IMG/VR virus record: IMGVR_UViG_2698536335_000010 | Direction: 5' to 3' (one strand) | Length of the DNA stretch: 5,290 nucleotides | Origin: a virus | Taxonomy: Duplodnaviria > Heunggongvirae > Uroviricota > Caudoviricetes | Shown here: one piece after another, positions 1 through 5,290 of the stretch | Numbering within the stretch: position 1 is the stretch's first letter | How the letters are laid out: each line of letters begins with the position of its first letter | Made by a program: the position numbers and the translations under genes | Notes under the pieces: model-generated | What the model saw: only the letters and a program-made list of their open reading frames with translations | Databases searched by the model: none | What the model was told of the DNA's origin: nothing

Positions 1-2
1 CC

Positions 3-110
3 CGTGAAGCCATAATGCTGCTGGCCCCGGGATCCGTCAGTGAAATGCAGGACTATATTCCGGAAAACCGCTGTTACCGTGCAACCCTGGAGTTTCAGGT
101 CACGGTGTGA
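3..110 (+). CDS. 3' end of an upstream structural gene (N-terminus outside window); possibly tail terminator / tail completion protein by gene order
   Basis: Only frame open from the window edge; reads ...REAIMLLAPGSVSEMQDYIPENRCYRATLEFQVTV and stops at TGA 108-110. Same strand and immediately upstream of the major tail gene. Product is inferred from synteny only; 35 residues are too few to assign a family. Confidence 0.4.
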   Translation, partial: REAIMLLAPGSVSEMQDYIPENRCYRATLEFQVTV

Positions 111-138
111 CTTTTTCTTTTTTTCTACAAAACCCATA

Positions 139-160
139 CCCCGCCGCGTGCGGGTTTTTT
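139..160 (+). terminator. Intrinsic-terminator-like hairpin followed by a T-run
   Basis: Stem CCCGC (140-144) pairs with GCGGG (150-154), 5-nt loop CGCGT, followed by TTTTTT (155-160). Lies in the 66-nt gap between the upstream stop and the major tail gene start. Confidence 0.5.
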
Positions 161-166
161 ATTATC

Positions 167-172
167 AGGAGG
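167..172 (+). promoter_or_regulatory. Shine-Dalgarno (AGGAGG) for the major tail protein gene
   Basis: Perfect AGGAGG 4 nt upstream of ATG 177. Confidence 0.65.
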
Positions 173-176
173 CAGA

Positions 177-893
177 ATGTCTGCTTTGTATGAACGCTCA
201 CAGCTGACGCAGGTGATGATTTCATCTGCCCCGGCGACTGCTGAAACTATGGATAAGGCGGAATATCTGCGCCTGGACTGCACCATCAAGGAAGTCCAGT
301 TCACCGCCGGTCAGAAACAGGATATTGATGTGACCACGCTCTGCTCCACCGAGCAGGAGAACATCAACGGTCTGGGGGCGTCGTCTGAGATTTCCATGTC
401 GGGTAATTTTTATCTGAATCAGGCCCAGAACGCCCTGCGTGATGCCTATGACAATGACGCGTTGTATGCGTTTAAGGTGCTGTTTCCGTCCGGTAAGGGC
501 TTTAAGTTCCTGGCGGAAGTGCGTCAGCACACCTGGTCATCCGGTACCAACGGCGTGGTGGCAGCAACGTTTTCACTGCGTATGAAAGGCAAACCGGTGT
601 CCTTTGTGGTACCGCTGGCGTTTGTGAAAAATCTGGATAAAACACTTACCGTGAATACAGGTGCGCTGCTGACAATGTCAGTCAGTGCCAACGGGGGAAC
701 GCCGCCGTATAAATACGCCTGGAAGAAGGATGGTCAGCCGGTTGACGGGCAGACGACAGACACCTTCAGTAAGCCAGGTGCGCAGTCCGCTGATGCGGGG
801 AAATATACCTGCGTGGTGACCGATTCGGCAGAGAAAGCACAGAGTGTGACGTCTGTTGAATGCACCGTGACAGTGAGCGCAGCCGCCGGATAA
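177..893 (+). CDS. Major tail (tube) protein with C-terminal Ig-like domain
   Basis: 238-aa ORF with a strong SD, placed directly before the chaperone cassette and tape measure gene, which is the canonical position of the tail tube gene. The C-terminal ~75 aa (...PPYKYAWKKDGQPV...DAGKYTCVVTD...VECTVTV) carry the W...D-x-G-x-Y-x-C signature of an Ig-like fold. Stop TAA 891-893. Confidence 0.8.
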   Translation: MSALYERSQLTQVMISSAPATAETMDKAEYLRLDCTIKEVQFTAGQKQDIDVTTLCSTEQENINGLGASSEISMSGNFYLNQAQNALRDAYDNDALYAFKVLFPSGKGFKFLAEVRQHTWSSGTNGVVAATFSLRMKGKPVSFVVPLAFVKNLDKTLTVNTGALLTMSVSANGGTPPYKYAWKKDGQPVDGQTTDTFSKPGAQSADAGKYTCVVTDSAEKAQSVTSVECTVTVSAAAG

Positions 894-907
894 GGGGATG
901 GGTCATC

Positions 908-1282
908 ATGAAAAAGGATCTGAAAACGCTGGCGCTGGCCAGACTGTCAGGGTTTCGTCATAAAACGGTGAAGGTGCCGGAATGGGGTAATGTCAGCGTG
1001 GTGCTGCGGGAGCCTTCGGCAGAGGCCTGGTATCTGTGGCAGGAAGTGCTCAATGGTGATGGAGAGGATGACGATACCCTGTCGGTGGTGGCGAAAACCC
1101 GCCGTAACCTGGAAGCGGATGTGACGCTGTTCTGCGATGTCCTGTGTGATACGGATCTGCAGCGGGTGTTCGCTCCGGACGACCGTGAGCAGGTGCTGGC
1201 CGTCTATGGTCCGGTACATGCCCGGTTGCTGCGTCAGGCACTGGAACTGATCGCTGATGCAGAGTCGGCCAGAAAAAAGTAG
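908..1282 (+). CDS. Tail assembly chaperone (lambda gpG analogue)
   Basis: ATG 908 (MKKDLKTLALARLSGF...) lies 14 nt after the tail tube stop, with GGGGA (894-898) as a likely SD. The ORF-track start at 860 is inside the preceding gene and lacks an SD. About 124 aa, acidic, ends ...ESARKK with the last codons forming the A_AAA_AAG slippery heptamer before stop TAG 1280-1282. Position between tail tube and tape measure genes is diagnostic. Confidence 0.75.
   Translation: MKKDLKTLALARLSGFRHKTVKVPEWGNVSVVLREPSAEAWYLWQEVLNGDGEDDDTLSVVAKTRRNLEADVTLFCDVLCDTDLQRVFAPDDREQVLAVYGPVHARLLRQALELIADAESARKK
1273..1279 (+). promoter_or_regulatory. Slippery heptamer A_AAA_AAG (copy 1) for a -1 programmed frameshift
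   Basis: X_XXY_YYZ heptamer in the last two sense codons of G. In this copy the -1 frame continues for only 33 codons (VARPEIRFLMRLALRLGRTLSELRHSLSDVIKR) and stops at TGA 1378-1380, because the tandem duplication junction interrupts it. Confidence 0.6.
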
Positions 1283-1376
1283 CCCGCCCGGAAATTCGCT
1301 TTCTGATGCGACTTGCGCTCCGTCTGGGGCGCACCTTATCCGAACTGCGGCACAGCCTGAGTGACGTCATAAAACG

Positions 1377-1691
1377 GTGAAGGTGCCGGAATGGAGAAAT
1401 GTCAGCGTGGTGCTGCGGGAGCCTTCGGCAGAGGCCTGGTATCTGTGGCAGGAAGTGCTCAATGGTGATGGAGAGGATGACGATACCCTGTCGGTGGTGG
1501 CGAAAACCCGCCGTAACCTGGAAGCGGATGTGACGCTGTTCTGCGATGTCCTGTGTGATACTGACCTGCAACGGGTGTTCACTCCGGACGACCGTGAGCA
1601 GGTGCTGGCCGTCTATGGTCCGGTACATGCCCGGTTGCTGCGTCAGGCACTGGAACTGATCGCTGATGCAGAGTCGGCCAGAAAAAAGTAG
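1377..1691 (+). pseudogene. 5'-truncated duplicate of the tail assembly chaperone gene (G'); lacks the first ~21 codons
   Basis: Frame opens after in-frame TGA 1362-1364. No ATG anywhere in this frame, only GTG codons (1377, 1383) without a convincing SD. Encodes ...KVPEWRNVSVVLREP...ESARKK, differing from G at G->R and A->T plus three synonymous changes. Ends with slippery heptamer copy 2 and TAG 1689-1691. Confidence 0.6.
1682..1688 (+). promoter_or_regulatory. Slippery heptamer A_AAA_AAG (copy 2), upstream of the intact T frame
   Basis: Same heptamer as 1273-1279 shifted by 409 nt. Here the -1 frame stays open from 1688 to TGA 1994-1996. Confidence 0.65.
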
Positions 1692-1996
1692 CCCGCCCGG
1701 AAATTCGCTTTCTGATGCGACTTGCGCTCCGTCTGGGGCGCACCTTATCCGAACTGCGGCACAGCCTGAGTGTGAGCGAGGCGATGATGTGGATGGAGTT
1801 CGACAGGGTATCCCCGCTGGGTGATGAGCGCGGGGATATCCGTAATGCACAGATCGTGAAAGCGGTTTTCGGGGCACAGGGGATGAATGTTGCACTGAAG
1901 GACGCCATGCTCTGCTGGGGCGAGGATGAGGATAAGCCGGAGGTGGATCCGTTTGCGGCGCTGGAAGACGCGCTGAGCTTCGCAGCACAGTCATGA
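1688..1996 (+). CDS. T portion of the tail assembly chaperone frameshift product (lambda gpT analogue); -1 frame relative to G'
   Basis: The -1 frame after the heptamer reads VARPEIRFLMRLALRLGRTLSELRHSLSVSEAMMWMEFDRVSPLGDERGDIRNAQIVKAVFGAQG...AAQS (~103 aa). Its first in-frame ATG (1715) has no SD, consistent with expression by frameshift fusion rather than independent initiation. Ends 47 nt before the tape measure start. Confidence 0.7.
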   Translation, partial: VARPEIRFLMRLALRLGRTLSELRHSLSVSEAMMWMEFDRVSPLGDERGDIRNAQIVKAVFGAQGMNVALKDAMLCWGEDEDKPEVDPFAALEDALSFAAQS

Positions 1997-2004
1997 ATGA
2001 TGAG

Positions 2005-2025
2005 AACCGCTGAGGCGGTTTTTTT
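2005..2025 (+). terminator. Terminator/attenuator-like hairpin followed by a T-run, between T and the tape measure gene
   Basis: AACCGC (2005-2010), loop TGAG, GCGGTT (2015-2020), with a run of seven T at 2019-2025. Stem is short, so strength is uncertain. Confidence 0.4.
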
Positions 2026-2043
2026 ACGCCCGGAGAAAGGTGA

Positions 2044-5000
2044 ATGGCGACGTTACGTGAACTGATTATCAAAATTTCGGCAAATTCGCAGTCATTCCAG
2101 TCGGAGATCCAGCGGGCTTCCCGCATGGGCAGTGAATATTACCGGACCCTGCAGAATGGCGGGCGTCAGGCTGCCGCAGTCGCCCGGGAGCAGCGACGCG
2201 CCCTGGCTGAGCTGAACAGCCAGTTGACGGAAATCCGCGCTTCAGCTGCCGGAACGGCGGGGGCATTTGCAGGTGCCTTTGCCACCGGACACCTGATTTC
2301 TCTGGCCGATGAATGGAGTTCCGTGAATGCCCGACTGAAACAGGCGTCGCAGTCATCCGATGAATTTTCGTCATCACAGAAAGTGCTGATGGATATCAGC
2401 CAGCGGACGGGCACGGCATTTTCAGATAATGCGGCCCTGTTTGCCCGCTCGGCAGCCTCAATGCGTGAATATGGTTACAGTGCTGATGATGTGCTGAAGG
2501 TGACGGAGGCCATTTCCACGGGGCTGAAAATCTCCGGTGCCAGTACGGCAGAGGCGGGCTCGGTGATCACCCAGTTCAGCCAGGCGCTGGCACAGGGTGT
2601 GTTACGCGGTGAGGAATTTAATTCGGTCAATGAAAGCGGAGACCGGATCGTACGTGCACTGGCTGCGGGTATGGGCGTGGCCCGTAAAGACCTTAAGGCG
2701 ATGGCGGACGACGGCAAACTGACGGCGGATAAAGTCGTTCCTGCGTTAATCAGCCAGCTGGGGGTATTGCGTGATGAATATGCCGCCATGCCGGAAACGG
2801 TCTCTGACGGGATCACAAAGGTGGAAAACGCCTTTATGGCCTGGGTGGGTGGCGCGAATGAAGCCAGCGGGGTGACAAAAACGCTCTCCGGCGTGCTGAA
2901 CGGTGTTGCCGGTAATATTGATAATGTGGCAACAGCCGCGGGGGCGCTGGTTGCCGTCGGGGTTGCCCGGTACTTTGGCAATATGGCCTCCGGAGCGGTG
3001 TCTGCCACGGCAGGACTTGTGACGGCAGCACGTAATGAAGTGGCACTGGCGGAAGCACAGCTCAGGGGGACGCAGATTGCCACGGCGCGGGCAAGGGCAG
3101 CCGTGTACCGTGCACAGCAGGCTGTGGCGGCAGCCCGCGGGACGGAGATGCAGATTGCTGCAGAAGCCCGTCTGGCGGCCACACAGGAACGCCTGAACAG
3201 AAATATTGCTGCCAGAACCGCAGCCCAGAATGAGCTGAACAGTACAACGGCGGTGGGCTCACGTCTGATGACTGGTGCGTTGGGACTGGTTGGTGGCGTA
3301 CCCGGACTGGTGATGCTGGGGGCAGCAGCATGGTATACGCTGTACCAGAATCAGGAGCAGGCCAGGGAGTCAGCGCGCCAGTATGCACTGACGATAGATG
3401 AAATCGCGCATAAAACGCCGTCAATGTCTTTGCCTGAAGCCTCAGATAATGAAGGACGAACACGGGCGGCGCTGGCAGAGCAGAACCGGCTGATTGATGA
3501 ACAGGCCAGCCGGGTGAAATCCCTGCAGGAAAAAATCGCTGGATATCAGTATGTTCTGGCTAACCCTGGCTGGACAACCGGTGACGGATTCATGATAAAC
3601 CATCTGACATCGGTGAAGACCGTGACGGAAGGGCTTTCTCAGGCAACAGAGCAGCTTGCCGTTGAGCAGTCCCGTCTGGCACAGATGCAGGAAAAAGTGC
3701 AGTCCATTCAGGATGTGCTTGCCGGGCTGGAAGACCGTCGTGTGGCGTTAATTCGTCAGCAGGCGGCAGAGCAGAATAAGGTGTACCAGTCCATGCTGGT
3801 TATGAACGGTCAGCATACGGAATTCAACCGTCTGCTGGGGCTGGGGAATGAACTGCTTCAGCAGCGTCAGGGACTGGTGAATGTACCGTTACGGCTGCCG
3901 CAGGCCACCCTGGATGATAAACAGCAGAGCGCCCTGACAAAAACAGAACGTGAGCTGGCCCTGTCCCGACTGAAGGGGGAGGAAAAAGAGCGTGCCCGGC
4001 TGGGGTATGCGGCGGATGACCTTGGTTTTGTGGGGGATTCGTATCAGGAGGCGAGACAGCGTTATATCAGTAATGCTCTGGAAGCCTGGCGTAATAACGA
4101 GGCGAACAAACCTAAATCCCGGGGTGGAAAATCAGAGACGGAAAAAGCGGAAGACAGTTTTTCCCGGCTACTGAAGCAGCAGAAAGAGCAACTGGCACTG
4201 GCGGGTCAGAATACAGAGCTGGCGAAGCTGAAGTACCAGACTGCGCAGGGCGAACTGAAAACCCTGACGGAGATGCAGAAGCAGGAACTGCTGCGTAACG
4301 CGGCCCTGATTGACCAGCAAAAAATCCGGGAACAGTTGCGATCCCGGGAAGAGACCCTGAAGAATGATAATGTGGCTGCGCGTGCATCAAATGAAGCCGA
4401 ACTGCTGGGATACGGGCAGGGAGAACGAGCCAGGGAACGCATGCGGGAGTTGCAGCAGATCCGCGACAGCTTCCGCCAGAAGGATGCGGACCTTCAGTCT
4501 CAGTATCAGACCGGGGATATCAGTGAGGATTTTTACAGACAGGCACGGGCACAGAACGCGCAGTATCTGAGCGAACGCCTTAAGGACCAGGCAGCCTTTT
4601 ATGCCGAATCGGATGCGCAGCGTGCGGACTGGCAGAAAGGCTTGCAGGAGGGGCTCAGTAACTGGGTGGACAATGCATCCGATTACGCTTCACAGGCAGC
4701 ACAGCTTGCGACGGAGGGTATCTCAGGGATGGTGAATAACATCACGGAGATGCTGAACGGAAACAAAGTGGAATGGCGCAACTGGGCCTCATCCGTACTG
4801 CAGGAAATCTCAAAAGTTCTTATGAATGCCGCGATTGTCAACGGAATTAAGACGGCGGCAAACGGTATGTCCGGTGCGGGAGGATTTATTGGCAGCATTG
4901 GTGACTGGCTGGGCGGTGCGGTGGCCAATGCAAAAGGCGGCGTGTATACCTCGGCAAACCTGAGTGCGTACAGCAACAGCATTGTGGACACGCCCACGTA

Positions 5001-5286
5001 CTTTGCGTTTGCAAAAGGGGCCGGGCTGATGGGGGAAGCCGGACCTGAAGCCATTATGCCCCTGACCCGGGCGGCGGATGGCTCGCTGGGCGTACGCGCG
5101 GTGGGCAGTATGAACGGCAGTGCCGGTCTGGTGTATTCCCCGGTCTACCACATCGCCATTCAGAATGACGGGGCTAACGGACAGATAGGGGCGGAGGCGG
5201 CAGGCAGTCTTGTGCAGCTGATTGACCAGCGGGTGCAGGCGGTGATGCTGTCCATGCGACGTGACGGAGGAATGCTGAGTGGCTGA
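2044..5286 (+). CDS. Tail tape measure protein (lambda gpH-like)
   Basis: 1080-aa ORF directly after the G/T cassette, with GGAG (2032-2035) 8 nt before ATG 2044. Long Ala/Gln/Arg/Glu-rich predicted helical and coiled-coil middle region, and glycine-rich hydrophobic segments (e.g. LMTGALGLVGGVPGLVMLGAAAWYTLY, ~3265..3345). The C-terminal region (...EWRNWASSVLQEI...GGFIGSIGDWLGG...IQNDGANGQIGAEAAG...MRRDGGMLSG) resembles the lambda gpH C-terminus (...NWRSFTRSVL...VGSIGSAIGG...INNDGTNGQIGPAA...MRDGGLFSG) as I recall it. Stop TGA 5284-5286. Confidence 0.9.
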   Translation: MATLRELIIKISANSQSFQSEIQRASRMGSEYYRTLQNGGRQAAAVAREQRRALAELNSQLTEIRASAAGTAGAFAGAFATGHLISLADEWSSVNARLKQASQSSDEFSSSQKVLMDISQRTGTAFSDNAALFARSAASMREYGYSADDVLKVTEAISTGLKISGASTAEAGSVITQFSQALAQGVLRGEEFNSVNESGDRIVRALAAGMGVARKDLKAMADDGKLTADKVVPALISQLGVLRDEYAAMPETVSDGITKVENAFMAWVGGANEASGVTKTLSGVLNGVAGNIDNVATAAGALVAVGVARYFGNMASGAVSATAGLVTAARNEVALAEAQLRGTQIATARARAAVYRAQQAVAAARGTEMQIAAEARLAATQERLNRNIAARTAAQNELNSTTAVGSRLMTGALGLVGGVPGLVMLGAAAWYTLYQNQEQARESARQYALTIDEIAHKTPSMSLPEASDNEGRTRAALAEQNRLIDEQASRVKSLQEKIAGYQYVLANPGWTTGDGFMINHLTSVKTVTEGLSQATEQLAVEQSRLAQMQEKVQSIQDVLAGLEDRRVALIRQQAAEQNKVYQSMLVMNGQHTEFNRLLGLGNELLQQRQGLVNVPLRLPQATLDDKQQSALTKTERELALSRLKGEEKERARLGYAADDLGFVGDSYQEARQRYISNALEAWRNNEANKPKSRGGKSETEKAEDSFSRLLKQQKEQLALAGQNTELAKLKYQTAQGELKTLTEMQKQELLRNAALIDQQKIREQLRSREETLKNDNVAARASNEAELLGYGQGERARERMRELQQIRDSFRQKDADLQSQYQTGDISEDFYRQARAQNAQYLSERLKDQAAFYAESDAQRADWQKGLQEGLSNWVDNASDYASQAAQLATEGISGMVNNITEMLNGNKVEWRNWASSVLQEISKVLMNAAIVNGIKTAANGMSGAGGFIGSIGDWLGGAVANAKGGVYTSANLSAYSNSIVDTPTYFAFAKGAGLMGEAGPEAIMPLTRAADGSLGVRAVGSMNGSAGLVYSPVYHIAIQNDGANGQIGAEAAGSLVQLIDQRVQAVMLSMRRDGGMLSG

Positions 5287-5290
5287 GATA

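Follow-up and report, generated by a model that had tools for sequence, protein, structure and literature searches.

Gene organization of the locus

The window, i.e., the whole stretch of 5,290 nucleotides analysed here, belongs to a lambdoid prophage of E. coli of the EHEC type and contains a G/T tail chaperone cassette of the ordinary lambda type; the genes, frames, repeat copies and slippery sites described below lie on the + strand. At its left end is the 3′ end of the gene for the tail completion protein gp17 (1..110, with the stop codon TGA at 108-110), which is 100% identical to the corresponding part of L001, the prophage locus of E. coli O26 strain 97-3250, whose gp17 CDS ends at the same point. 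This is followed by the gene for a V-like major tail subunit (177..893), whose C-terminal domain is Ig-like; the gene was recognized from its ORF and its Pfam matches and is annotated “major tail subunit” in L001. The Pfam families Ig_3, I-set and Ig_2 score above their cut-offs, while Phage_TTP_11 (24.6 vs 28.4 bits) and Phage_tail_2 (23.1 vs 23.8 bits) remain just under theirs. The Ig-like domain is encoded at 621-893 and corresponds to residues ~149-227 of the protein, an arrangement found also in lambda gpV and related tail tube proteins. Between the gp17 stop codon at 108-110 and the start of the major tail gene at 177 there are terminator-like hairpins with T-runs at 97-113 and 140-154; the number of such hairpins in the segment 97-164 is not above that of shuffled sequence.

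The G/T cassette comes next, and a large part of it is present twice in tandem, as copy 1 (956..1363) and copy 2 (1365..1772). In an earlier note on this DNA the resulting order had been read as G – T′ – G′ – T, a reading that is borne out by the Pfam assignments. As had also been claimed there, the G belonging to copy 1 is intact: its ORF (908..1282) encodes 124 aa, is matched by Phage_TAC_1 over profile positions 1-124 of 124 (206 bits, E = 1.7e-61), is of haplotype A as defined below and specifies a protein identical to WP_000710949.1 of loci L001 and L004. The last two sense codons of G, AAA AAG, which precede its TAG, are covered by the slippery heptamer A AAA AAG (site 1, 1273..1279), read from the sequence and in register with the G frame. 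A shift at this site would give access to the truncated T′ frame (1273..1380), which is −1 relative to G and consists, in full agreement with what the earlier note had stated, of KK plus 33 residues before the stop TGA 1378-1380. The translation predicts a G–T′ of 157 aa containing no part of the Pfam T domain, which begins at residue 19 of the ORF starting at 1715, i.e., at base ~1769; the Phage_tail_T domain is found only after copy 2 (ORF 1715-1996).

Copy 2, on the other hand, retains its own slippery heptamer A AAA AAG (site 2, 1682..1688, likewise read from the sequence) and a complete T frame, −1 relative to G′ and open from 1682 to 1996 (KK plus 102 residues; Phage_tail_T 67.8 bits), whereas it lacks, as had been noticed, the N-terminus of G and any in-frame ATG. 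What is left is a 104-aa ORF, G′, with an in-frame GTG start (1377..1691), which matches Phage_TAC_1 at positions 21-124 of 124 and is therefore devoid of the first 20 positions of the chaperone profile. The claims that the two copies lie in different frames and that no single ribosome path leads to a full-length G–T hold as well; indeed, the uninterrupted route that leads in all relatives from the start of G, by way of the slippery site, into the full T domain is broken in the window. Read-through of the amber codon TAG 1280 was considered and rejected, the G frame being in the phase of the copy-2 T but meeting a TGA seven codons further on.

The window ends with the gene for the 1080-aa tail tape measure protein (2044..5286), recognized by Pfam TMP_3, Phage_HK97_TLTM and Tape_meas_lam_C. 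The computed Shine-Dalgarno pairing is strong for V (−10.3 kcal/mol), G (−8.4 kcal/mol) and the tape measure gene (−6.6 kcal/mol), the window median being −3.5 kcal/mol; the ATG 1715 of the T ORF reaches just −3.5 kcal/mol, and T has no ribosome-binding site of its own.

Two further hairpins were recorded in this part of the window. The first, at 2002-2025, is a GC-containing hairpin of 9 bp (GAACCGCUGAGGCGGUUUUUUU) with a U-run, situated after the T stop codon (1994-1996) and before the start of the tape measure gene (2044); with a folding energy of −10.8 kcal/mol (z = −1.8) it was missed by the consensus terminator scan, which yielded nothing relevant to the repeat in the window, and it looks like a candidate intrinsic terminator or attenuator within the tail operon. 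A stable 8-bp GC-rich hairpin (GCGCUCCGUCUGGGGCGC) lies at 1314-1333, ~35 nt 3′ of the heptamer, and is repeated at 1723-1742; the 66-nt segment containing the hairpin at 1314-1333 folds with −22.6 kcal/mol (z = −2.3). This hairpin may be a frameshift stimulator, the distance from the heptamer being long for such a role.

On all the features tested except the continuity of the path from G to T, the cassette belongs to the lambda G/T family, with putative frameshifting. As in lambda, G is a Phage_TAC_1 and T a Phage_tail_T protein, the cassette is situated between the major tail protein and the tape measure genes, T lies in the −1 frame over the 3′ end of G with a heptamer of the type X XXY YYZ at the last G codons, and the T ORF is without a ribosome-binding site of its own. 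Unlike the lambda heptamer, which is G GGA AAG, that of the window is A AAA AAG; furthermore, the cassette of the window is split by the 409-nt repeat so that no single path joins G and the T domain. In lambda, gpG and its frameshift product gpGT are both required for tail assembly at a fixed ratio of ~30:1, the G part binding the tape measure protein and the T part recruiting the major tail protein (PMC5009743). The origin of the two lambda products by programmed −1 frameshifting is credited to Levin, Hendrix & Casjens 1993 and to Xu, Hendrix & Duda 2004, 2013 and 2014, and has been reviewed (PMC5009743).

Anatomy of the repeat

Tandem Repeats Finder reports a tandem repeat at 956-1772 with a period of 409, 2.0 copies, 98% matches, no indels and a score of 1592, and a separate repeat search returned the same 409-nt spacing; a repeat of such length and identity cannot be attributed to chance. 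Base-by-base comparison demonstrates that the homologous unit is 408 nt long (956-1363 and 1365-1772) and that the period is 409, instead of 408, because of a single extra base, A1364, at the junction. The tandem duplication of ~409 bp described in the earlier note is thus confirmed and at the same time refined to a 408-nt unit plus A1364. The identity between the copies breaks off abruptly, on the left at 955 and on the right at 1364/1773, and within the unit it is interrupted by six mismatches (copy 1/copy 2): 986/1395 G>A, 988/1397 T>A, 1153/1562 G>T, 1156/1565 T>C, 1162/1571 G>A and 1172/1581 G>A.

The base A1364 corresponds to neither of the two haplotypes to be described, since haplotype A has T at 955 and T at the 1364-equivalent and haplotype B has C at both. 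Derivation of this base from a third allele at 955 or 1364 was rejected, no allele A being found at either site in 5,426 E. coli genomes, in IMG/VR or in 74 aligned cassettes. As to the coding consequences, in an in-frame 408-nt version without A1364 the T′ frame still halts immediately (TCA TAA); the T′ frame stops with or without A1364 and, therefore, the extra base leaves the outcome unaltered.

Two haplotypes in series

The left part of the window (1-1363), which includes copy 1, has no mismatch with L001, and the right part (1773-5290) has 2 mismatches in 3517 nt (99.94%). This sequence, hereafter haplotype A, is that of the single-copy prophages of O26:H11 strains such as 97-3250, and copy 1 is 100% identical to it in L001, in L004 and in many complete genomes. 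Copy 2, which has 6 mismatches to L001, has none to L002 (O26 strain RM8426) and L003 (strain 2013C-4225), and the identical sequence is found in many complete genomes, at another prophage locus; copy 2 represents haplotype B, the G/T allele of another prophage. The two haplotypes are found at separate loci of one and the same chromosome, as in 2013C-4225, where B is located at 2.696 Mb (L003) and A at 3.006 Mb (L004), and their co-residence is seen also in the complete genomes of 2013C-3277 and SMN197SH3.

All six differences between the copies are common polymorphisms among 74 independent IMG/VR cassettes. Being pre-existing alleles, they indicate that the copies did not diverge in place and that two alleles are arranged in series. 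A tandem duplication of older date, confined to a single prophage and followed by point mutation of its copies, could account for a difference at 6/408 positions; this explanation, which deserves next to no credence, is contradicted by three facts: widespread natural alleles match copy 1 and copy 2 each at 100%, the six differences are common polymorphisms clustered at 986/988 and 1153-1172, and flanks 99.94-100% identical to single-copy relatives leave no time for six substitutions to accumulate in 408 nt.

The simplest arrangement, a single junction followed by a natural prophage consisting of copy 2 and the downstream sequence, was also rejected, since no natural prophage equal to this combination was found, the best match being 99.7%. 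It follows that copy 2 is a B patch in A flanks and that two switches are required within 409 nt. One of the switches could be accommodated by a block of 191 nt (1173-1363 in unit coordinates) in which A and B are identical.

Exchange between the alleles is not confined to the window. The SNP clusters 986/988 and 1153-1172 in G assort independently and produce at least 17 haplotypes in the 74 cassettes, an assortment seen also in loci L001-L104; this pattern indicates frequent short-tract homologous exchange among co-resident lambdoid prophages.

Within T, the sole difference from the closest relatives is a C at 1870, a synonymous change (TTC vs TTT). The C allele is common (IMG/VR loci: 45 C, 29 T) and is carried by the B-type loci L002 and L003, so that, given this base, the B-derived tract may extend beyond copy 2.

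Some of the related prophages carry lesions of their own. In L011 (GCA_964048225.1) an IS66-family element with three ORFs (2081-5259 of that locus) is inserted in the major tail gene of a prophage that is otherwise identical, and is an independent inactivation of the same prophage type. Six complete-genome loci (L002, 114-2697; L003, 438-2698; L004, 105-2689; and L021-L023) have a portal gene annotated as a frameshifted pseudogene; in L012 this gene is an intact 859-aa ORF, and in L001, where it is partly shown, it has no pseudogene flag. The portal frameshift could reflect genuine decay, a recoding site or sequencing errors in homopolymers.

Occurrence of the junction and position of the breakpoints

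The search for the junction covered ~2,900 homologous places, from 5,426 complete E. coli genomes, and 93 phage places. Among the matches listed, no record contains it in one piece in either set, and the arrangement is single-copy throughout. The exact junction, formulated as two patterns with 0-2 filler bases, gave 0 occurrences in GTDB representatives, IMG/VR and JGI metagenomes; in the corresponding positive control the normal continuation was recovered from 110 IMG/VR loci, 106 of which have one unit, 4 none (truncated loci) and 0 two. The comparison with the single-copy G/T locus of the closest relatives, which the earlier note had proposed, gives the same picture: these relatives, 99.8% identical over the whole window, span 4881 nt, i.e., 5290 minus 409. 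Furthermore, all 10 contigs on which the identical tape measure protein is encoded have a single G and a single T. Outside the window, the 104-aa G′ ORF was encountered in just two settings: six draft contigs open directly with it, and L024, a single-copy draft of low quality, has it in its interior.

The EHEC/Stx lambdoid prophages taken for comparison (L001 of O26:H11 strain 97-3250, phages 2851, YYZ-2008, JLK-2012 and BP-4795, and Stx1a/Stx2 phages) display 99-100% identity with the window and the same gene order once one unit is removed; unlike the window, which has two units of different haplotypes, each of them has exactly one. Had the duplication been inherited, its junction should be shared by relatives or by independent assemblies, and the differences between the copies should be new mutations; the junction is shared by none of those searched, and each copy is instead 100% identical to a different pre-existing allele.

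Both ends of the repeated unit adjoin sites at which these alleles differ. The bases directly flanking it, 955 and the 1364-equivalent, are each T in A and C in B and are common polymorphisms, with minor-allele frequencies of 0.19 at 955 and 0.27 at 1364. Sites with a frequency ≥0.1 occupy 19/680 cassette positions and sites with any polymorphism 82/680; the chance that both breakpoints adjoin sites of the former class is ~8e-4, increasing to ~1.5e-2 if any polymorphic site, including the rare ones, is counted. Contigs derived from an assembly graph end at the last shared base before a paralogue difference and start at the first shared base after one. Six draft contigs (L005-L010) begin at, or directly after, the polymorphic site 966 in the G gene, and this shows that assemblies do break in this gene at polymorphic sites.

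Origin of the duplication

Misjoining of paralogues predicts breakpoints at paralogue-discriminating sites and copies carrying the haplotypes of different co-resident paralogues; both are found, the former at 955 and 1364. Since the copies correspond to two co-resident haplotypes, the junction is unique and the breakpoints coincide with haplotype-discriminating sites, a misjoin is favored, and we regard it as likely that the duplication arose when two overlapping contigs or paths derived from co-resident prophages were joined into a chimera, and that it is not present in the living genome. Of the three readings left open by the earlier note, that of an artefact produced from two related prophages is therefore the favored one, that of a tail-defective prophage survives as a possible minority reading, and that of an unconventional route to G′–T finds no support.

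The assembly history, as we infer it, would be the following. The source strain would have possessed several nearly identical lambdoid prophages, two G/T haplotypes of which would have been placed one behind the other. A first stretch, comprising the A-type V, G and the start of T, would end at 1363, the last base before the differing site 1364, whereas a second would start at 956, the first base after the differing site 955, pass through the B-type variants, change over to the downstream sequence of A within the 191 nt that are identical in A and B, and then continue through T to the tape measure gene. The overlap of the first stretch with the second amounts to 408 nt at 98.5% identity; instead of being merged, they would have been concatenated with a spurious A1364. 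In terms of an assembly graph, the walk would pass twice through 956-985, 989-1152 and 1173-1363, via the A bubbles the first time and via the B bubbles the second. The real locus would then be a single-copy cassette producing G (124 aa) and, by −1 frameshifting at A AAA AAG, G–T (226 aa).

The likeness to contig-end overlaps and repeat-boundary misjoins of multi-prophage strains resides in the copies being co-resident paralogues and in the breakpoints lying at discriminating sites; unlike many of these, the window has no N run at the join, and its classification among them is made by inference. Several considerations count against a misjoin. Assemblers usually collapse repeats and do not expand them, and joins usually consist of N runs, not of one base. 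The breakpoint coincidence weakens to p ~0.015 when rare polymorphisms are counted. Genuine exchange is rampant in these prophages, and EHEC prophages are often defective, so that a real rearrangement is not far-fetched.

Such a rearrangement, real, private and very recent, which would leave G intact and abolish full-length G–T, is the alternative to be taken seriously, albeit a rather doubtful one. Here a 3′ end at 1363 of prophage A would gain one untemplated base during replication or repair, prime on a co-resident B-type prophage at 956, copy ~220-408 nt and return by homology within the 191-nt block. With a frameshift product ending after 33 residues, before the T domain, the phage would be incapable of independent tail building, and the near-identical G and G–T of co-resident prophages could serve in trans. 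The duplication is, after all, present in the sequence as given; homologous exchange is frequent here, as seen in the independent assortment of the clusters 986/988 and 1153-1172; relatives carry other lesions (the IS66 element in V of L011 and the portal genes annotated as frameshifted); and the rest of the window is undamaged, as befits a very young lesion. That lambdoid prophages can provide virion proteins to one another, as reported by Asadulghani 2009 (cited in PMC6379469), speaks in the same sense. These points are to be weighed against the need for an illegitimate join together with a homologous switch, both within 409 nt, the lack of a biological reason for breakpoints to fall at paralogue-discriminating sites (p ~8e-4 to 1.5e-2), and the lack of a second example in ~3,000 loci, among the matches listed. 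Moreover, a functional phage would lose such a lesion by selection, lambda requiring both gpG and gpGT (PMC5009743).

That the split cassette might be functional through a two-step recoding relay is highly improbable. According to this scheme, frameshifting at site 1 would bring ribosomes to the TGA 1378-1380, which overlaps the GTG 1377-1379 as GTGA; reinitiation at GTG 1377 would make G′ (104 aa), and a second frameshift, at site 2, would yield an N-terminally shortened G′–T of 206 aa capable of recruiting the tube protein. The stop/start overlap GTGA does exist at 1377-1380, site 2 and the T frame are intact, and G′ keeps positions 21-124 of the chaperone profile. Nevertheless, GTG 1377 is without a Shine-Dalgarno sequence or ribosome-binding site, its pairing of −2.4 kcal/mol being weaker than the window median (−3.5) and far from that of the G start (−8.4); a GTGA stands in the normal sequence of G as well, at 968-971, so that the motif was not created for a relay; and the arrangement is conserved in no relative, among the matches listed. 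Furthermore, G′ lacks 20 profile positions and two successive low-frequency events are needed; the yield, obtained by multiplying the frequencies of two rare frameshifts and of a reinitiation step, would be far under the ~1:30 of lambda (PMC5009743).

What the locus means depends on which of these readings is true. A relay would constitute a split, doubly recoded G/T system, and only this reading would add to what is known of recoding. If the duplication were real, it would represent one more route by which a lambdoid prophage loses independent tail assembly while being rescuable by its neighbours, a matter of modest interest. If, as we favor, two co-resident prophages were misjoined, the window is to be taken as a data-quality flag only: the G/T cassettes shared by co-resident EHEC prophages would be prone to assembly breaks and misjoins, and such misjoins would mimic frameshift-disrupting duplications or pseudogenes.
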